Virus record (IMG/VR): IMGVR_UViG_2061766007_000136
From: an uncultured virus (IMG/VR IMGVR_UViG_2061766007_000136)
Lineage: Duplodnaviria; Heunggongvirae; Uroviricota; Caudoviricetes
Direction: 5' to 3' (one strand)
Length of the DNA: 40,316 nt
A program made the position numbers and the translations under genes. Every line of letters starts with the position of its first letter. Positions within the stretch are counted from its first letter, which is position 1. Below are positions 5,021 through 36,323 of this stretch, piece after piece. Under the pieces are notes generated by a model. The model did not search any database, was not told the DNA's origin, and worked only from the letters and a program-made list of their open reading frames with translations.

Positions 5021-5533
5021 TCAAAATTTCTTCACTTCTTCCCATCTTTTCATTGTATCGTCAAGATTTTCGCCGTTGGCTTCGCATTCCATCTGCCTTT
5101 CAAGCTCTTCAAATCCCGCCAGAACCAGCTTTTTGGACATCTCGCATCTTTCGAGGAAATGCGCTTTCAGCTTTTCAAGCCCTTCCTTCTCCATGCCGTG
5201 CGGAATCTCAATCCCGAACGTGTCTCGTGGCTGATACATGGAAACCGCATGCGACATGGCACCGACTCTTGGATAATCCCTTTCCGTTTCTGGAACCCGC
5301 TTGTCGTCGTCGTCCATCGTCCAGAGATGAATCCCGCCATCGTAGTAGTTGCTGTCGTACTTGTTCCACGTCAGTTCATATCTGATGCCGTAGCCACTTG
5401 CCGACGTGGGCGAAACCATAAGGCGAACCACCTTGTAGTTCTTTTTCAGGCATTCATTGCAATGCTTGTTGTATTCGTCTTCGTCTTCGAACTCCGCTCC
5501 GCATATGTCGCAAATCCAGATTTCCTTTTTCAT
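5021..5533 (-). CDS. hypothetical protein with N-terminal C2H2/C2HC-like zinc finger
   Basis: WICDICGAEF...YNKHCNEC; AAGGAG SD. Confidence 0.75.
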   Translation of the reverse strand: MKKEIWICDICGAEFEDEDEYNKHCNECLKKNYKVVRLMVSPTSASGYGIRYELTWNKYDSNYYDGGIHLWTMDDDDKRVPETERDYPRVGAMSHAVSMYQPRDTFGIEIPHGMEKEGLEKLKAHFLERCEMSKKLVLAGFEELERQMECEANGENLDDTMKRWEEVKKF

Positions 5534-5561
5534 GCCGTCTCCTTTGACTGGTTTTAAAATA

Positions 5562-5639
5562 TGGTAGGAGCAATTGGATTCGAACCAATGGTATTTTGGG
5601 TGTAAACCAAACGCTCTAACCAGGCTGAGCTATGCTCCC
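5562..5639 (-). tRNA. tRNA-Val(TAC)
   Basis: Loop TT-TAC-AC; CCA. Confidence 0.9.
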
Positions 5640-5655
5640 ATTGAAAACTCTTGCT

Positions 5656-5732
5656 TGGTGAGGACGGGTGGATTCGAACCACCGACCTTGTCCATGTCAA
5701 GGACACGCTCTAGCCGACTAAGCTACGCCCTC
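5656..5732 (-). tRNA. tRNA-Val(GAC)
   Basis: Loop TT-GAC-AT; CCA. Confidence 0.9.
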
Positions 5733-5738
5733 AATATA

Positions 5739-5966
5739 TTAGAATCCGACTTCCTTCTTTGGAAGCTGAAGTATGCAGACTTCATTGCAAAGCGTCATCA
5801 GCTTGTCCCTGTCGTCGATTTTCCTCGCCTTTTCGGAGAACTCGGAGATGAACTCCTGCGAGCAACCCTGCCTCCTCAATTGTTTCTCCACTTCGCCACG
5901 GATGGATGCCCGTCCGAGGGCATGGTACTTTGACAACTTCACCTTGATGTTCGTCTGTTTCAGCAT
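5739..5966 (-). CDS. small hypothetical protein
   Basis: 75-aa ORF with AAGGA SD. Confidence 0.65.
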   Translation of the reverse strand: MLKQTNIKVKLSKYHALGRASIRGEVEKQLRRQGCSQEFISEFSEKARKIDDRDKLMTLCNEVCILQLPKKEVGF

Positions 5967-6009
5967 CGTACTGTTCCTTCTGGTTGATTAATGTTTTGAA
6001 AGCCGAACA

Positions 6010-6121
6010 GGGTTAGCTTGGATTCTATGGCGTTTCAGCCGTTGGGAATCCTAGGGAGATTTCATGTTTTCAACGAAGCATAGTGGCACTTGTTTCAAAA
6101 ATGAAACAACACAGCCAACCC
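6010..6121 (-). ncRNA. candidate ~110-nt structured RNA
   Basis: GGGTTGGCT/AGCTAACCC closing helix (G-U pair only on the minus strand) enclosing hairpins. Confidence 0.45.
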
Positions 6122-6125
6122 AAAA

Positions 6126-6202
6126 TGGTGGGGGAGAGTGGATTCGAACCACCGACCCTTTCCTTATCAGAGAAATGCTCTAACCAACTGAGCTACTCCC
6201 CC
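6126..6202 (-). tRNA. tRNA-Ile(GAT)
   Basis: Loop CT-GAT-AA; CCA. Confidence 0.9.
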
Positions 6203-6212
6203 ATTTTAAACT

Positions 6213-6289
6213 TGGTGGAACTGGCGGGACTTGAACCCGCGACCTTCTACATGCGAAGCAGGTGTTCTAGCCAACTGAACTACAGCCCC
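6213..6289 (-). tRNA. tRNA-Ala(CGC)
   Basis: Loop TT-CGC-AT; G3:U70. Confidence 0.9.
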
Positions 6290-6312
6290 ATTAAAGTTGT
6301 AAGTTGTTGATT

Positions 6313-7029: not shown

Positions 7030-7040
7030 TTCACGGAAAA

Positions 7041-7200
7041 AAGCCATACACCAGTGCGCACTGGCGCATGTTGTTACTAGACGTGCATTGGGGCGTTTTG
7101 TGCTTGTACAATACACCATTCTCGGTATCCCAGAGCGTTTTCGGGGGAAAGGCTCATGACTTCCTTTCTCTTGTTCCGCACTACTCACCTTCTAGTATCT
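7041..7200 (-). ncRNA. unknown structured RNA, copy A
   Basis: Homologous to 7261-7402 with compensatory changes. Confidence 0.7.
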
Positions 7201-7260
7201 ATTTTTCCAAAAGCCACAGAAGGGTTCTTTAGAAGCACCCTTACCGAAAAATCTAAAAAA

Positions 7261-7402
7261 GAGCCATGCGCCAGTGCGCCCTAACGCATGTTTTTACCAG
7301 ACGTGCTTGAGGCGTTTCATGCTATTACCAGAGCACTTTGCGGGGTGGCAGGCTCATGATTTCCCGTCCCATGTTTCCACAAATGCTCACCTTCTGGTAT
7401 CT
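7261..7402 (-). ncRNA. unknown structured RNA, copy B
   Basis: Homologous to 7041-7200. Confidence 0.7.
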
Positions 7403-7427
7403 CTTTGTTCCAGTTGAAAACCAGTTG

Positions 7428-7502
7428 TGGTAGGGGATGATAGAGTCGAACTATCGTCTGAACTTTATAAGAATTCGGTCCTAACCGTTGAACGAATCCC
7501 CC
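7428..7502 (-). tRNA. tRNA-Ile(TAT)
   Basis: Loop CT-TAT-AA; A73; CCA. Confidence 0.85.
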
Positions 7503-9154: not shown

Positions 9155-9228
9155 TGGTAGGCCTGGACGGTACCGACCCGTCTTCTCCAAATTAAAAGTT
9201 TGGTGCTTCACCTTAAAGCTTCAAGCCC
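9155..9228 (-). tRNA. tRNA-Lys(TTT)
   Basis: Loop CT-TTT-AA; atypical T-loop; CCA. Confidence 0.82.
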
Positions 9229-9955: not shown

Positions 9956-10355
9956 TGGTGGAGATGTCGGGGAACCGCCCCCCGATTCCTTGACAGCCTT
10001 AATCGCACGGATTCTTCACACGCTTGCCTTCATCCTGTTCTTGGCTGAAGATGACCTCAATCCATTTGTACTGTTCCAGAACTGCTTGGACTCGCCATTC
10101 TGGTAGGAACGCCTTTCTTTCCTTTTTCATGCCGTCCGTCCTGCGCTCGCTTGACGGCTAGCCATATCGGAATTGATTTGACACCTCACCGCTTATCCGA
10201 ATAGCGGATTTTTCCGTTGGTGCTCGCAGTCACTAAGCTGCGAGGGCGTAATCTGTATTCGCAGATATTTTTCGGTCGGGTTTTATAAGGAGCCTCCTGA
10301 CCAACTCCTGCATGCATCCATGTTTTCGACTGGAAGTCGAGTTTGTTTCATCCCC
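9956..10355 (-). ncRNA. ssrA: tmRNA
   Basis: 5' GGGGATG..TCGAC, 3' CATCTCCACCA with G3:U70; tag frame ANTDYALAA-stop at 10262-10233. Confidence 0.95.
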
Positions 10356-10542: not shown

Positions 10543-10633
10543 TGGCGGAGGGTACAGGATTCGAACCTGTGAGCCTTTTTAGGGACTAGCGGTTTAGCAA
10601 ACCGTCGCAATAGACCAACTCTGCCAACCCTCC
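10543..10633 (-). tRNA. tRNA-Ser(GCT)
   Basis: Loop TT-GCT-AA; long variable arm; G73; CCA. Confidence 0.92.
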
Positions 10634-10640
10634 ATTGTCA

Positions 10641-10715
10641 TGGAGCCGATTCTCGGACTCGAACCGAGAACTTTCGCCTTACTAGAGCGATACTCTACCA
10701 TTGAGTTAAATCGGC
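10641..10715 (-). tRNA. tRNA-Thr(AGT)
   Basis: GCCGATT acceptor, U73; loop CT-AGT-AA. Confidence 0.88.
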
Positions 10716-10729
10716 AACCGAAGATTTTT

Positions 10730-10808
10730 TGGAGCCAGCGGGGGGATTCGAACCNNNNNNNNNNNNNNNNNNNNAACCAGACCTGTTGACCACTTAGGAA
10801 ACGCTGGC
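10730..10808 (-). tRNA. Thr-like tRNA, anticodon in N-gap
   Basis: GCCAGCG/CGCTGGC-TCCA; D-arm like that of the long-arm Thr at 2095. Confidence 0.7.
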
Positions 10809-10825
10809 ATCACCTGAAATCTTTA

Positions 10826-10918
10826 TGGTGGTCCACCGTGGATTCGAACCACTCGTCAAACCGACCCCCCTTATTTCATCGACACTGATTTTACAGACCA
10901 GCGGGAGGAAGATGAACC
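10826..10918 (-). tRNA. tRNA-Tyr(GTA) lacking a D-arm
   Basis: Loop CT-GTA-AA; D-arm replaced by CTTCCTCCC; enlarged variable arm; ACCA. Confidence 0.75.
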
Positions 10919-10952
10919 ATCGTTATTGAAAAATCTTTTGATAAAGAGCATT

Positions 10953-11000
10953 AAAAAAGCCCGTCAGGTTTTTCCTTTCGGATTATCCTTGACGGGCTTT
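10953..11000 (-). terminator. intrinsic terminator (attenuator) between leader ORF and tRNA array
   Basis: AAAGCCCGTCA...TGACGGGC-TTTTTT. Confidence 0.85.
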
Positions 11001-11028
11001 CTCGTTTTCTATCGGTTTCTGGGAGATT

Positions 11029-11166
11029 CTAGAACCTCCGCTCGTCAAAGGATAATCCATGCTTTCTACCTTCATCATAGAGTCCTTCATAGGCGCATGG
11101 CAACGTCGCAAAGACGCTATTGCGTTTTGCATTGCATGTGCTCTGACTCTTAATGGTAGTGGACAT
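11029..11166 (-). CDS. putative 45-aa leader (attenuator) peptide
   Basis: AAGGA SD; 3' codons complementary to the terminator 5' strand; 36 distinct codons in 45. Confidence 0.65.
   Translation of the reverse strand: MSTTIKSQSTCNAKRNSVFATLPCAYEGLYDEGRKHGLSFDERRF
11040..11058 (-). promoter_or_regulatory. antiterminator strand
   Basis: GGATTATCCTTTGACGAGC can pair with GCCCGTCAAGGATAATCC (10997-10980). Confidence 0.75.
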
Positions 11167-11314
11167 TGTTCTTTCCTTTGACTTTTTCGCCGTCGCTTTT
11201 GTCTGAAAAGCGAATCTGACTTTAGAAACTGATATAAACAAAAAGTTAAATCCGACGAGGTTTTGACCTCGGTGGAAGTCGAATCAAAACGCTGTTGTTT
11301 TGTTCAACGCTTAT

Positions 11315-11342
11315 AATATGGCACGTTTTTCTGAAATTGCAA
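11315..11342 (-). promoter_or_regulatory. sigma70-like promoter heading the RNA island
   Basis: TTGCAA-N16-CATATT. Confidence 0.72.
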
Positions 11343-11361
11343 GTCGACTCGTGAAATTTTT

Positions 11362-11925
11362 TCATTTTTTTTGAATTTTTTCATTCGGAAACGACTTTTC
11401 AACTGCATCAAGCCCTTTGACGATTTCTATGGCACAAGCCACAGCGCATCTGACGGCTTCCTCTGCCGTGCCCTTCTTGAATTGAACCAGACTGGATTCA
11501 CCGAATTCCACTCGCTCGCCACCGTACTTTTCAAAAGCCGTCTCAAACACGCGGGTGATTCCATCGACATCGTAAACCTCATCCAACTTAATGCCGTCTT
11601 CCTTCATCACCACGACATCGAACTTGTCATCGAATGTCATGCTCAAAGGAAGAATCCCAGCCCAGTATCTCCATTCCACGCCTTCGCTCCACTGGGAGTA
11701 TCTGGCGATGACATTAAAATCCATTTCACCAATCTTGAAATCCCTGTTGAACCCATAAAGATTCACGAGATTGTAGCCGTAGTCCAACTGGGCGTTGACG
11801 CAATTGCTGTTTTCATGGTCGAAGGAAATCGGCATGAACCCGTGGTCGTACAGCCATGCGATGTCCTTTGAAATATTGCTGGATTCACCAATCAGAATGT
11901 CGGCTTCTTTCAAATTCTCTTCCAT
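11362..11925 (-). CDS. hypothetical protein, paralogue family A
   Basis: Shares WL.DHGF and TAEEAV..AVA.AI motifs with the next two ORFs. Confidence 0.8.
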   Translation of the reverse strand: MEENLKEADILIGESSNISKDIAWLYDHGFMPISFDHENSNCVNAQLDYGYNLVNLYGFNRDFKIGEMDFNVIARYSQWSEGVEWRYWAGILPLSMTFDDKFDVVVMKEDGIKLDEVYDVDGITRVFETAFEKYGGERVEFGESSLVQFKKGTAEEAVRCAVACAIEIVKGLDAVEKSFPNEKIQKK

Positions 11926-11937
11926 TGTTTCTTTTCC

Positions 11938-12489
11938 TTATTCATTAAAACACTCTGGATGCTCGTCACGGTACTTGTCCATCTCCTTGTGGACTTCGAT
12001 TGCGAAGGCGACCGTCCTTTTCACGGCAATTTCAGCCGTCTTCCCCTTGAAGCACATCGTGATACCATGCTTCACGGCTTCCTCCTCGTCAGCCCCCATG
12101 CGTTTCTCGTACACACGGTCGTAGATGGTTCCAAACCTGTGCTTCATGGCGTATTGGAGTCTGCTGATGGATTCGCTCTTGAAGTCATTCTGCGGTATCA
12201 ACGCCATGTAGGTGTAATTCGGATGCATTCCGATTACATGCAGGTAGATGTTGAATGAATGGTTCTTGTAGTGAAACAACCTCTCGTACCCTGCGGAATG
12301 GGCGATGGTCATCCAGTCATTCTCGCCATAGGCATTGGGAACAAGGGTCTTGTCGTCGTCAACCGAATAGATTTCCCAAAACCCGTGGTTCAGCAACCAG
12401 TTGTGGCTTTCGGCTAATCCGTCTTCCTCTCCAATCACCGCCTGCACGAGCACTTCGTCCACGACATCGTATTTTTCCTCTTTGCTCAT
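11938..12489 (-). CDS. hypothetical protein, paralogue family A
   Basis: YDVVDEV, WLLNHGF, TAEIAVKRTVAFAI. Confidence 0.8.
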   Translation of the reverse strand: MSKEEKYDVVDEVLVQAVIGEEDGLAESHNWLLNHGFWEIYSVDDDKTLVPNAYGENDWMTIAHSAGYERLFHYKNHSFNIYLHVIGMHPNYTYMALIPQNDFKSESISRLQYAMKHRFGTIYDRVYEKRMGADEEEAVKHGITMCFKGKTAEIAVKRTVAFAIEVHKEMDKYRDEHPECFNE

Positions 12490-13040
12490 CTGAACACAAA
12501 CGCCTTTCTCTTGTACTGCGCCTCGAAGCGCATCCTGATGCTCTCCATCGCCCTGATTCCATAGGCGACCGCCTGCTTGACAGCCTCCTCAGCGGTATTG
12601 GCGACGAAACCATTGAGGCAATCAGCAGGCATGGACACCTCGAACATGTCGTAGATGTCGTTCTCCATGAAGTTACTTCTCAATGTATTGAACATGTCGC
12701 CATTGAATTTCTTTGGACTTATTTGCGAATGATACAAGCATCCATGATAGGAATCATCATCGCTTTCGCACTTGAATTCAAAATAAACATCGACATCGAA
12801 CTTAACATAGTCGCAAAAGTCCTTGACGCAGAAATTCTTGAACCTATGCAGGAATTGACGGGAAAAGCATATGGGAACCATCCACGATGTATTGCCGTTT
12901 TCAGGTCCAAAAACCTCATGGAAGTAATGGTCAAAAAGCCATTGCCTGTTCTTCGATATGTCGCACTCGGTGCCGATGGCATTCTGCGCCATCACCTCAT
13001 CCACGACATCGTATTCACTTTTTGTCTTTTTCTTCGCCAT
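12486..13040 (-). CDS. hypothetical protein, paralogue family A
   Basis: YDVVDEV, WLFDHYF, TAEEAVKQAVAYGI. Confidence 0.8.
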   Translation of the reverse strand: MAKKKTKSEYDVVDEVMAQNAIGTECDISKNRQWLFDHYFHEVFGPENGNTSWMVPICFSRQFLHRFKNFCVKDFCDYVKFDVDVYFEFKCESDDDSYHGCLYHSQISPKKFNGDMFNTLRSNFMENDIYDMFEVSMPADCLNGFVANTAEEAVKQAVAYGIRAMESIRMRFEAQYKRKAFVFR

Positions 13041-13410
13041 CGTTTTTGACATCTGTTTTATCCAATCCATTTTCAAGGAACAACTTGGGCAGGTATTCCA
13101 TGAATTCGTTTATCGCATTCAGCTTTTTCTGAAGGTACTCCATGTCCTCCTTGACGTACTCCCTGCATTTGTCCAGCTCGACCAACTGCTTCTCAACCGC
13201 GTCTGGAAAGGAAGTGCAGTCGTTTTTCTCCATTTTCCCTATCCCGAAATGGGCGTAGTTGCCACGCGAATCAAGCGATACAATTCCAAATCGGTGATTG
13301 TACGGCTGGTTCTTGTACTGTGCTGGCTTTTCCTTGAAAACGAGCCTGAACCCGTTGGATTCAAGCGTGAACGAATGCCGTCCTTCATTTTCATTCATCT
13401 CTATATTCAT
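13015..13410 (-). CDS. hypothetical protein
   Basis: 131-aa ORF in operon order. Confidence 0.75.
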   Translation of the reverse strand: MNIEMNENEGRHSFTLESNGFRLVFKEKPAQYKNQPYNHRFGIVSLDSRGNYAHFGIGKMEKNDCTSFPDAVEKQLVELDKCREYVKEDMEYLQKKLNAINEFMEYLPKLFLENGLDKTDVKNDGEEKDKK

Positions 13411-15671: not shown

Positions 15672-16751
15672 TTACTGCGGGTCTGGGATGTACATGTCCC
15701 TGTCTTCCTTGACATCTAGGACTCGGATGCTGTGGGATGCGATATGCTCGTATTTCTTGTCGCAATGGATATACGCGATGTTCAGCTTCGGGGCATCACG
15801 GCGTTTAGACATATCGTCCAAGAACTGAACGAGGTTGTCCTCGTCGTCCATGTCGTACCCGTTGCGGAGACCACGCACCAACACAGGCTCTACGTATTTG
15901 GAACGCTTGGAGTTGACGAATTCGACCAGTTGCTCTGGGAACTCGATGACCTCGTGATGACGCATGATGTCCTTCACGTTGTCGAATTCGGGATTACCGA
16001 GCAAGTCCTTCTTCGCACGGTTGTATCCTTTGGCGATAATCACCTTGTCGAACATCTTCTCCGCCTTGCGGACGATGTTCAAATGCCCGTTATGGAACGG
16101 ATAGAAACTACCCGCGTAGATGCCGACAGTGCGCTTGCGCTGGACAAGCGGACGCAGGTAGTTGGCGACTTCCTGAGTCATCAGCCCCTTCCTAACCGAA
16201 TTATCGATAAAGATGAGACGATGCTTGACGTATTCTTCGACAGGAACTTTCTGGAACTCCTTGAAAATATTGTTTTCATAAGTATCCAGCCATTCGGCGT
16301 ATTCAGGGGTGATGTCATGGGTGGAACCCATGTAGTTCCAGTCGAGGTCGCGGAGGATAAGCTCATTCTTGGTCTTCGCATTCTCAGGATGCTTCGTGGA
16401 CATAATGAGACTTGCGACTTCCTCGATTTCCTTGTCCGTGTACTGGCAGGTATCCGTACCGCCGTAGTGACTGGTGCAATGTTCCTTGACGTATTCTCGC
16501 CACAGCTCGACGGACTTCTCCTCGTTGTCGCTCGCAAACGGTTCGTAAACAATGTCATGGAAGACAATTGCCCTGTTCAGAACGTTCCACATCGCCATAT
16601 GCTCGTCTTTCGTGATGTTGCCTTTCTTCTCCTCGTCTCGGAGTATTCCCTGCATCTTGTCCCACATCATGTTGACATGGGCATCCGTATGATGGTAACG
16701 CCACGGTTCGGAGTAGCATTCGTCGCTCAAATATCTCCAGTCTCTGCTCAT
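15672..16751 (-). CDS. coaD: HD-domain phosphohydrolase fused to pantetheine-phosphate adenylyltransferase (CoaD-like)
   Basis: N-terminal Y.EP.RYHH...H..FHD.VY...NEEKS; C-terminal GIYAGSFYPFHNGH...VRGLR...D. Confidence 0.8.
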   Translation of the reverse strand: MSRDWRYLSDECYSEPWRYHHTDAHVNMMWDKMQGILRDEEKKGNITKDEHMAMWNVLNRAIVFHDIVYEPFASDNEEKSVELWREYVKEHCTSHYGGTDTCQYTDKEIEEVASLIMSTKHPENAKTKNELILRDLDWNYMGSTHDITPEYAEWLDTYENNIFKEFQKVPVEEYVKHRLIFIDNSVRKGLMTQEVANYLRPLVQRKRTVGIYAGSFYPFHNGHLNIVRKAEKMFDKVIIAKGYNRAKKDLLGNPEFDNVKDIMRHHEVIEFPEQLVEFVNSKRSKYVEPVLVRGLRNGYDMDDEDNLVQFLDDMSKRRDAPKLNIAYIHCDKKYEHIASHSIRVLDVKEDRDMYIPDPQ

Positions 16752-35258: not shown

Positions 35259-36323
35259 TCACTTTTCTCCTTTCAACAGATACTTATTGGACACAGCCTT
35301 GAACAGGATTGGTTTCAAGGAAGACTCTTCCTGCTTGTAAACCAAGCCCTCACGAGGATTTCCGTTCTCGGTCAGACCATCGGAATAGGCAAGGAGTTCA
35401 TCCGTGTCCTTAAATGTATCAAACGGCTTGAAGTGCCGTGCAATCACTGGGACATGCGGGACACCGTACTTCTCGCACCACTCATGGCGTTCATCAGGAG
35501 ACAAGTACATCTGCTTCGTAATATTATAGATGCTGTACACGCGGAACTGCACGTCAGTGAGCTTGTCACGGTTTTTCTGAATCCCAAGTCCATGCAACTC
35601 GCCCTGAATCGCGAGTTCGATGCCAGTTTCCTTGTAATGTTGCTCCAGCTTCTCTCGCAGACCAAGTTGATTCGCTAGCTTCACAAACAGACTATTGCTG
35701 TCGAGCTTGAATTCAAGTTCATGGGAACAGACACCGAACGGGTCGTTTGCACGGTATTCAGGAGCATAGAACACGGTCATGGACTGACCGTCAATCTTGC
35801 GAGTGACTTCGAATTCCATGCCTTTCTTCTCATCGAAATAATTGGAAAGATTCTGGATTCGCTCCAATTCCGTGGACGGAATCCATCCTGGCAACAGACC
35901 TTTCGCATCTTCGCATTTGATATACTTAGACGCAATATGGTCGTAATGCTGGACATGCAGGACTTCTGCGCAGTCGGCACCAAGTTCGGCATCAACGATT
36001 TCAGGGAAGTCGCCTACAGGCATGAGCAAGCCCTGAGACAGCTTCTTGCGGAATTCCTGCGTCCGAATACGAACACATGCTTCAAGGACATTGCCGTTGT
36101 CGTCCTTGAATTCCTTATAAGAAGACTTTTTCAGGAATTCATAACGCGGGTCGTCCGCTGGCAACGCGGAATCGATTTCAAAATAGACACCGACATCCCC
36201 AGCCTTGAACTGACCTTTCGGCACGACACACTGCCATCCGCCGATGTGAGCGAGTTCGATACGGTCTGCGCCCTCAATCAGGCTGATGGAGTCAACAATC
36301 ACTTTGCGCACTAGCTTTCTCAT
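35259..36323 (-). CDS. ATP-dependent RNA ligase, DRB0094 (Rnl5) family
   Basis: N-terminal IEGADRIE..GW..VV OB domain; KIDG motif I, QGEL, REGLVYK, FKAVSNKYLLK. Confidence 0.92.
   Translation of the reverse strand: MRKLVRKVIVDSISLIEGADRIELAHIGGWQCVVPKGQFKAGDVGVYFEIDSALPADDPRYEFLKKSSYKEFKDDNGNVLEACVRIRTQEFRKKLSQGLLMPVGDFPEIVDAELGADCAEVLHVQHYDHIASKYIKCEDAKGLLPGWIPSTELERIQNLSNYFDEKKGMEFEVTRKIDGQSMTVFYAPEYRANDPFGVCSHELEFKLDSNSLFVKLANQLGLREKLEQHYKETGIELAIQGELHGLGIQKNRDKLTDVQFRVYSIYNITKQMYLSPDERHEWCEKYGVPHVPVIARHFKPFDTFKDTDELLAYSDGLTENGNPREGLVYKQEESSLKPILFKAVSNKYLLKGEK

Follow-up and report, generated by a model that had tools for sequence, protein, structure and literature searches.

What controls the transfer RNA (tRNA) genes that a phage carries? 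To our knowledge, how phages control their own tRNA genes is essentially unknown, and the question is raised by a locus in IMG/VR record IMGVR_UViG_2061766007_000136, an uncultured virus of the Caudoviricetes. The whole stretch of 40,316 nucleotides from this record that was analysed is called the window. Its minus strand holds a tRNA island of 36 genes called by ARAGORN (10715 to 192) and one more recognised by Rfam, and the island is headed by a leader of approximately 355 nt that contains a short open reading frame (ORF) and ends in an intrinsic terminator. The original prediction, made from the sequence alone, had described this leader as an attenuator of the trp/his type whose peptide samples almost all codons, such that a ribosome stalling nearly anywhere would let transcription pass into the tRNA genes. 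The reading that we favour, tentatively and at somewhat less than an even chance, is that the leader is a translation-coupled transcription attenuator gating a promoter-less block of tRNA-type genes at 10919-10543. Of the earlier interpretation as a whole the translation-coupled switch is kept, and the codon sampling and the stalling at almost any codon are not supported.

Architecture of the leader and of the block behind it

All coordinates of the leader module refer to the minus strand. In order of transcription, the leader and the genes directly behind it comprise the following features.

11312-11371, minus: promoter with an A-rich upstream element (-35 TTGCAA at 11342-11337, -10 ATATTA at 11319-11314)
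11251-11307, minus: hairpin I (11307-11279) and hairpin II (11276-11251), then a U-rich tract, as folded
11224-11239, minus: 5' strand of an outer helix, pairing with the post-ORF spacer at 11020-11004
11193-11213, minus: small hairpin 5' of the Shine-Dalgarno (SD) sequence
11162-11191, minus: segment 1, the SD/AUG region, which pairs with segment 2
11029-11166, minus: leader ORF, 45 sense codons and a TAG stop, with the conserved core KRNSVFATLPCAYEGL
11039-11059, minus: segment 2, ORF codons 37-43, whose partner is segment 1 or segment 3
11022-11039, minus: hairpin whose loop contains the stop codon (loop CUAG in the window and GUGA in the relative L001)
11004-11020, minus: 3' strand of the outer helix, lying in the spacer that separates the ORF from the terminator
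10953-11000, minus: intrinsic terminator; segment 3 is its 5' arm and loop (10998-10979), segment 4 its 3' arm, and the U tract lies at 10958-10953
10829-10919, minus: atypical tRNA-like gene, the first behind the terminator (tRNA-Sec model 21.5 bits, below the gathering score)
10543-10815, minus: remaining genes of the promoter-less first block, in the order long tRNA-type gene, tRNA-Thr(AGT), tRNA-Ser(GCT)
10728-10815, minus: the long tRNA-type gene itself, its anticodon region inside the N-masked stretch 10766-10785

We compared these features with L001, the one syntenic DNA locus, which belongs to a second metagenome phage and has the order upstream gene, family promoter, 48-codon leader ORF, terminator, odd tRNA-like gene and tRNAs for Thr, Thr and Ser. 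The promoter, SD, 45-codon ORF and U-tailed terminator described in the original prediction are all present in the window. The SD, AAGGA at 11178-11174, stands 7 nt ahead of the AUG at 11166, a good SD at the right spacing, as in L001 too. The terminator has an 8-bp G+C-rich core that can be extended to 11-14 pairs and is followed by six U; its hairpin has a free energy of -23.5 kcal/mol in both phages, and its sequence in L001 is the same apart from the loop. A simple hairpin scan did not list this terminator because its loop is longer than the scan permits.

The leader as a whole is very stably folded. The 371-nt fold of the window has a z-score of -7.74, with none of 100 shuffles as stable, and the L001 leader, which has the same architecture, reaches -6.52. 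Hairpins I and II are both kept in the L001 fold, and the region that holds them (11251-11307) is the best-conserved part of the leader. The outer helix, which connects the U-rich tract with the post-ORF spacer, is present in both folds despite differing 3' strand sequences, the stop-codon hairpin is kept in L001 with one pair changed on both sides from A-U to G-C, and at the place equivalent to the small hairpin 5' of the SD there is in L001 a hairpin of unrelated sequence.

Three overlapping pairings define the candidate switch. Duplex 1:2 (11191-11162 with segment 2) has 18 pairs and -16.7 kcal/mol in the window and 13 pairs and -12.3 kcal/mol in L001, and in the minimum-energy fold it closes the whole ORF into a long rod that buries the SD and the AUG. 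Duplex 2:3 (11059-11039 with 10998-10979) has 17 pairs, one bulge and one mismatch at -26.0 kcal/mol, and none of 1000 dinucleotide shuffles of the upstream leader was as good (mean -13.2, standard deviation 2.2), which bears out the complementarity between ORF and terminator that had been claimed. The L001 duplex, at -21.6 kcal/mol, is equalled or bettered by 57 of 1000 shuffles and is not exceptional alone, but it lies at the homologous site. Duplex 3:4 is the terminator, and segment 2 is a close copy of segment 4. The layout 1:2/2:3/3:4, mutually exclusive and with the ribosome binding site as segment 1, is found in silico in both DNA orthologues, with the ORF stop 8 nt past segment 2 in each. 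The pairing of segment 2 with the SD/AUG region, like the invariant peptide core described below, did not figure in the original prediction.

The promoter of the leader, approximately 93% identical to that of L001, belongs to a family with seven copies in the window and two in L001 (repeat families D9/D17; alignment of the copies). The family pattern is an A-rich tract, CTTGCAA or CTTGAC, a spacer of approximately 17 nt and ATATTA, and the window copies are as follows.

11371-11312, 10541-10490, 10491-10432, 7570-7519, 5040-4981, 3127-3068 and 341-282, minus: copies of the promoter family

Five of the seven copies sit approximately 20 nt ahead of a tRNA, and the family splits the island into blocks. 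A scan from 10953 to 10543 found no family promoter, other promoter types not being excluded, and for this reason the four tRNA-type genes at 10919-10543 appear to need transcription through the terminator. The internal family promoters are real, so that only this first block of four hangs on the leader terminator; the earlier suggestion that internal promoters limit the control to the first tRNA block agrees with the positions of the family promoters, which in this part of the window occur only at 11371-11312 and from 10541 downward. A promoter-like sequence within the ORF, TTGCCA-N18-TATGAT, was rejected because both its spacing and its -10 differ in L001.

The tRNAs that had been said to follow the terminator are indeed tRNA-type genes, the first of which is atypical and received no call from ARAGORN or the Rfam tRNA model. 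Its acceptor stem is of 9 bp, its D region is minimal and its T arm normal; it also has a long extra region and an encoded CCA, and its anticodon loop reads CUGUAAA (GUA, Tyr-like). The gene is nearly identical in L001 (5041-5133, plus strand).

How would such an element work? On a leader without a ribosome, 1:2 would make the rod and hide the SD and the AUG, the 3:4 terminator would form and transcription would stop at 10953. A ribosome that parts segment 1 from a bare segment 2 would let segment 2 pair with segment 3 ahead of the synthesis of segment 4, giving read-through to the tRNA genes. A ribosome at the last codons or the stop would cover segment 2, and the terminator would form again. 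The read-through case would be that of a ribosome at or near the start or, kinetically, of any ribosome lagging inside the rod, and the element would report the occupancy and speed of ribosomes on the leader and no particular codon. The attenuator draws support from the synteny with L001, the coding signature, the structure, the covariation and the promoter dependence of the block, and weak support from transcription.

The leader ORF, its relatives and its codons

Is the leader ORF likely to be translated? The alignment of the window ORF with that of L001 covers 44 codons, with 13 identities, 10 synonymous differences and 21 non-synonymous ones, and the differences at codon positions 1, 2 and 3 number 13, 13 and 23. 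Within the 15-residue core KRNS(V)FATLPCAYEGL seven codons differ, and all seven do so by a synonymous change in the third position. The ORF carries three gaps in the DNA alignment, each of 3 nt, and the gaps outside it are of 1, 3, 5, 9 and 10 nt. The stop codon falls at the same aligned place but is a different triplet, TAG in the window and TGA in L001, and FATLPCAYEG is unchanged in 3/3 peptides, those of the window, L001 and the database relative P0010. On the strength of the synonymous-only core, the in-frame indels, the common stop position and the peptide core in all three sequences we judge the ORF to be coding, and it looks translated. A second open frame of 49 amino acids (10983-11132, minus strand), which overlaps the leader ORF and enters the terminator, is open in L001 without conservation at the protein level. 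The peptide as a whole is 52-55% conserved, below the RNA elements that surround it. By inspection it is hydrophilic, with 7 K/R, 5 D/E and no hydrophobic stretch; it had no match in Pfam, and no Atlas score exceeded 0.84.

A profile search of 1.84 billion proteins returned one further credible homologue of the peptide, P0010, which lies inside a longer called ORF on a single 790-bp contig. Since it comes from one short contig, the read-through ORF of P0010 may be an assembly error. Two other candidates, P0011 and P0012, were dropped as repeat proteins with a chance FATLP-like word. Searches of INPHARED with blastn and tblastn gave no relatives of the module, only chance matches with E of 3 or more; none were found in IMG/VR by protein, protein profile, five DNA patterns or a degenerate pattern of the peptide core, and none in GTDB genome contigs. 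The peptide was absent, as an exact or word-sharing match, from collections of 5.8 billion and 15 billion proteins, and a word-based search returned only P0010.

The differences between relatives bear on the pairings. The SD region CAAAGG and segment 2 CCUUUG of the window correspond to CAAGG and CCUUG in L001, a matched A/U insertion that keeps 1:2 and accounts for the bulge in the window 2:3. Within the distal portion of the 2:3 helix L001 has a C-G pair where the window has A-U, by a reading of the pair lists that depends on the alignment. Near-identical variants from two other gut metagenome studies (X3 and X4) have only two substitutions inside the leader transcript, a synonymous AAG>AAA at 11062 and a G>A at 11171, 5 nt before the AUG, each replacing a G.U pair in the rod by A-U. 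The leader block of X4 (10803-11370) shows 8 differences and 1 gap in 568 nt; its adjoining gene differs at 24 of 113 positions and has in addition a 264-nt diverged stretch.

As to transcription, a 245-nt contig from an RNA library (X18) covers 11001-11245 with one difference, although DNA is possible in such libraries. Contigs of this kind give neither ends nor levels, and the parts they leave uncovered prove nothing. Because the ends of X18 match the borders of the conserved flanks, they probably reflect branching of the assembly graph and not RNA ends. The RNA run X17 held no near-identical piece of the leader, and X18 held nothing near-identical of the neighbouring gene.

The hand counts in the original prediction were all correct: the window ORF uses 36 distinct codons in 45, none more than twice, covers 19 amino acids (no Trp), and has ACT, ACC, ACA and ACG once each and CGC, AGA, CGG and AGG once each. 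What these counts mean depends on the comparison. Among 4101 45-codon windows drawn from 20 genes of the phage (mean 27.3, standard deviation 3.3) a count of 36 is rare, being reached by 0.1%, but what this mainly reveals is that the biases in codons and amino acids typical of ordinary genes are missing from the ORF. If all 61 codons were used equally, the expected mean would be 32.0, with P = 0.057 for 36 or more, and shuffles of the ORF's own bases give P = 0.05-0.10, so that the diversity is near random expectation. L001 has 34 distinct codons in 48 (P 0.44-0.56; top 3% of gene windows), with ACG four times, dispersed, and CGC three times. Of the recurrence in relatives that had been proposed as a check, the layout and 2:3 are therefore found in L001 and the codon diversity is not, and codon sampling as a selected design is not borne out. 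The simplest account of the even codon use is that it comes as a side effect of a sequence that is short and complementary to itself.

We also considered an enrichment of the leader in codons read by the downstream tRNAs. Such codons make up 6 of 44 in the window (P 0.09) and 9 of 47 in L001 (P 0.02), both post hoc. In L001 the terminator is followed, as first canonical tRNA, by tRNA-Thr(CGT), which reads ACG; the excess of this codon in L001 (P = 0.004, uncorrected and post hoc) is neither present in the window nor indicated by P0010. The enrichment was set aside as weakly supported and post hoc; P0010 has few Thr and Ser.

Weighing the proposed switch against other explanations

Does the leader behave as a switch when it is folded? 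In the local 126-nt stretch, the terminator and antiterminator folds have -40.0 and -37.0 kcal/mol in the window and -39.0 and -36.0 kcal/mol in L001, a gap of 3.0 kcal/mol in both phages, and masking the last nine codons leaves the terminator fold alone. The claim that the two folds exclude each other holds, then, and they are nearly isoenergetic. When the transcript is cut before segment 4 and the SD/AUG is masked by a ribosome, 2:3 becomes the best structure, with 17 pairs in the window and 12 in L001. On the cut transcript the antiterminator is best solely when codons 1-2 (window) or codon 1 (L001) occupy the P site, and elsewhere the rod leads by 3-9 kcal/mol; the claim that stalling at almost any codon gives read-through is not supported here. 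Since the rod wins at interior ribosome positions, sensing at any codon requires a kinetic argument. The nearest-neighbour model omits the bulk of a ribosome threaded in the rod, and a kinetic version of the switch that works at any position may hold, without support from the modelling.

Several observations weigh against the attenuator. When the leader is folded at full length, the terminator is present in both phages wherever the ribosome is placed; classic attenuators likewise have the terminator as the best fold at full length and act kinetically. On the cut transcript the rod is more stable than the antiterminator by 4.1 kcal/mol (window) and 9.0 kcal/mol (L001) when no ribosome is present, and by 2.8-9.0 kcal/mol when one sits on codons 5-33. 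The window leader has no run of regulatory codons. The comparative base is thin, with two DNA orthologues (window and L001), and P0010 has no stop at the homologous place but reads on across residues encoded by the terminator. The invariant core suggests, from the aligned peptides, a role for the peptide itself, a trait that classic leaders lack. Further down the island, tRNAs likewise come after the U-tailed hairpins at 7290-7255 and 7070-7035 with no family promoter in the interval. Directly after the U tract of the leader terminator stands a sequence (10950-10938, minus strand) that we take to be boxA-like, with one mismatch to what is presumably the rrn boxA consensus; its first 8 bases are kept in L001 (5010-5022, plus strand), and at two or fewer mismatches 1.3 chance matches are expected in the window. 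This motif and the other U-tailed hairpins may mean that read-through of terminators is general in the island.

Much of this would suit the principal rival, a self-contained small gene or dual-function RNA, in which promoter, a gene for a protein of 45-48 residues and terminator form a unit of their own, the rod serves mRNA stability and limits translation, and the tRNAs are reached by constitutive leak or processive antitermination. The complementarity of 2:3 would then follow from segments 1 and 3 both being SD-like GUCAAGGA strings. The invariant FATLPCAYEG with synonymous-only changes between the window and L001, the terminator being best under every equilibrium condition, the other hairpins followed by tRNAs, the boxA-like motif and the missing stop of P0010, where the attenuator model needs one, all speak for it. 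Yet the peptide has no family match, with P0010 as its only credible relative in the proteins searched, and is less conserved than the flanking RNA elements; moreover, a small gene does not require segment 2 to be nearly a copy of segment 4, 2:3 to be far stronger than 1:2 in both phages, or the balance of 3 kcal/mol to be equal in both, and it leaves four tRNA-type genes with no other visible promoter. We regard it as somewhat unlikely. The same invariant core could instead belong to a real switch that is set by the peptide, through arrest in the exit tunnel and possibly in response to a ligand, or by a protein or small RNA binding the SD, with action in trans possible. The antiterminator is best exactly when the SD/AUG region is occupied, and a trans-acting attenuator product has a precedent in Sinorhizobium peTrpL, as described in PMC7298713 and 10.1101/864512. 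No arrest motif was recognised and no ligand or factor found, however, and the core lies 16-31 residues before the C terminus, so that it would contact the tunnel only near the stop, which favours termination; with three sequences only, we think a switch of this kind improbable.

Codon sampling, nested within the attenuator, would have the leader selected to include nearly all codons so that most tRNA shortages open the terminator. The rarity of its codon count among the phage's gene windows, the place of L001 in the top 3% of these, and the investment of the phage in translation repair, with 36-38 tRNA genes, a transfer-messenger RNA (tmRNA) and an RNA ligase, are in its favour. Against the random expectations given above the numbers are ordinary, the pattern of four Thr and four Arg codons is not kept in L001, one hungry codon would cause a brief stall only, and interior ribosomes do not favour the antiterminator in the modelling, all of which leaves the idea with little credence. 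If, on the other hand, the ORF were fortuitous, the leader would be a non-coding structured RNA, for example a rod cut by a double-strand-specific RNase or a small stable RNA of the tRNA cluster. Extreme folding z-scores, an SD and AUG buried in the best fold, a second frame open in both phages and the absence of the two leader ORFs, of 45-48 residues, from the calls of gene finders in the 15-billion-protein collection are consistent with such an RNA. It is made very unlikely by the core differences, all synonymous and in the third position, by ORF indels that are all in frame with a stop position common to both phages, by the alternative frame not being conserved as protein, and by the good, well-spaced SD in both phages.

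Known systems and the tRNA island

How far does the attenuator that we favour resemble known ones? Three of six features of leader-peptide attenuators were found (a terminator before promoter-less genes, a short ORF with an SD, overlapping pairings), and a codon run was not; in the window and L001 a distance of 8 nt separates segment 2 from the stop, and P0010 lacks a stop at this place. The amino-acid operon attenuators are those of trp, his, thr, leu, ilv and pheA of enterobacteria, and the pheL paper (PMC3082878) reportedly provides an example of a leader-peptide attenuator. Like them, the leader has a promoter-proximal intrinsic terminator, a short leader ORF, here with predicted translation, and the 1:2/2:3/3:4 arrangement; its stop, as placed in the window and L001, may let a finishing ribosome cover segment 2, and termination would be the default when the leader is untranslated. 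Unlike them, it has no regulatory codon run and a longer ORF (45-48 codons), the role of segment 1 falls to the SD/AUG rather than to regulatory codons, the rod takes in the entire ORF, the peptide has a conserved core, and the genes behind it are phage tRNA-type genes instead of biosynthetic enzymes. The logic of trp/his-type attenuators that had been invoked applies, in short, to the layout and the coding ORF and not to regulatory codons.

The E. coli pyrBI attenuator has a leader ORF of 44 codons that runs through the terminator, and it senses the closeness of ribosome and polymerase. The leader is similar in length, and its signal would also be the closeness of the ribosome to the polymerase and no specific hungry codon, but where in pyrBI the ribosome blocks the hairpin physically, the ORF here stops 31 nt (window) or 28 nt (L001) before the stem, and only P0010 reads through. 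The mRNAs of hok-type type I toxins have a small ORF in a folded mRNA of approximately 350-400 nt, an SD hidden by long-range pairing, and alternative folds. A small ORF in a highly folded mRNA, a hidden SD and alternative folds are found here too; the peptide, however, is hydrophilic and charged, unlike a membrane toxin, which makes it not hok-like, no gene for an antisense RNA was noticed, and the unit is followed by a tRNA block. With T-boxes, which recognise tRNA by direct binding and do without an ORF, the leader would have in common a terminator/antiterminator switch that answers to the tRNA pool, but it had no credible match to Rfam at E up to 10 and none at gathering score, and it is for this reason not a T-box. 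The Sinorhizobium trpL attenuator (PMC7298713 and 10.1101/864512) yields a terminated RNA, rnTrpL, and a peptide, peTrpL, each with trans functions of its own. Such a division would suit a conserved peptide core inside a conserved RNA, although there is no sequence relation, the regulated genes differ, and a trans activity here is hypothetical. Huge phages with many tRNAs and a tmRNA in large genomes are described in PMC7162821, and the sections of that account dealing with tRNA clusters describe no leader regulation of tRNA genes. In open-access papers on phages and bacteria we found no leader-peptide attenuator ahead of tRNA genes, and the part of one genome-wide attenuator survey that was checked for tRNA terms contained none.

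The setting of the island is phage-like, with genes for an RNA ligase, a DNA methyltransferase, an HNH endonuclease and a phosphohydrolase/nucleotidyltransferase. The features concerned are the following.

9956-10355, minus: tmRNA gene (Rfam tmRNA model 44.8 bits, gathering 47, E 1.2e-16, full length), without an ARAGORN call
9158-9228, minus: extra tRNA (Rfam 46.8 bits), without an ARAGORN call
11362-13076, minus: three tandem paralogous genes (187, 183 and 196 amino acids) with a common WL(Y/L/F)DHGF-type motif
15672-16751, minus: phosphohydrolase/nucleotidyltransferase fusion
35259-36323, minus: RNA ligase (PHROG 968, E 3e-78)

The tmRNA is well conserved in L001 (about 5860-6300, plus strand), and the window copy has its own family promoters at 10541-10432. 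The gap at 10432-9945 had been a candidate for a second leader, which was rejected because the gap is the tmRNA gene. In L001 an ORF of approximately 84 codons with several Cys (5505-5757, plus strand) occupies the interval from the tRNA-Ser to the tmRNA promoter and has no counterpart in the window. Elsewhere in the island, two tandem related units of approximately 200 nt (7035-7430, minus strand) each have a closing helix of UACCAGA/UCUGGUA type, an MSL mini-ORF and a U-tailed hairpin; their folds are no more stable than those of shuffled sequences (z -1.3 and -1.0), and no Rfam family matches them. The three paralogues upstream of the leader match no Pfam or PHROG family. Nine homologues of the upstream gene were found, in metagenome protein sets only, one of them on a contig of 655,914 bases, and the structure model of the protein family is poor (mean predicted local distance difference test score, pLDDT, 43.5). 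Together, the RNA ligase, the nucleotidyltransferase fusion, the tRNAs and the tmRNA suggest a toolkit for tRNA repair and translation rescue.

What would the leader mean for a phage with such a toolkit? In PMC10264068 (eLife) and PMC11555353 (Nat Commun), phage tRNA genes are now viewed as tools against host defences that cut tRNA. In its broadest form, which we consider unlikely, the attenuator would let a huge gut phage autoregulate its own tRNA supply, with the ribosome on the leader as a speedometer of translation, for example after cleavage of tRNA by a host nuclease, and it would be the first case of leader-peptide attenuation acting on tRNA genes, as well as the first sensor of its kind in the tRNA island of a phage. 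Even if the attenuator fails, it is noteworthy that a tRNA island begins with a very stable RNA in which a conserved small protein is encoded. If the attenuator is true, tRNA production would be tied directly to ribosome performance, a textbook mechanism would be extended to a new class of target gene, and the phage would possess a compact sensor of translation stress.

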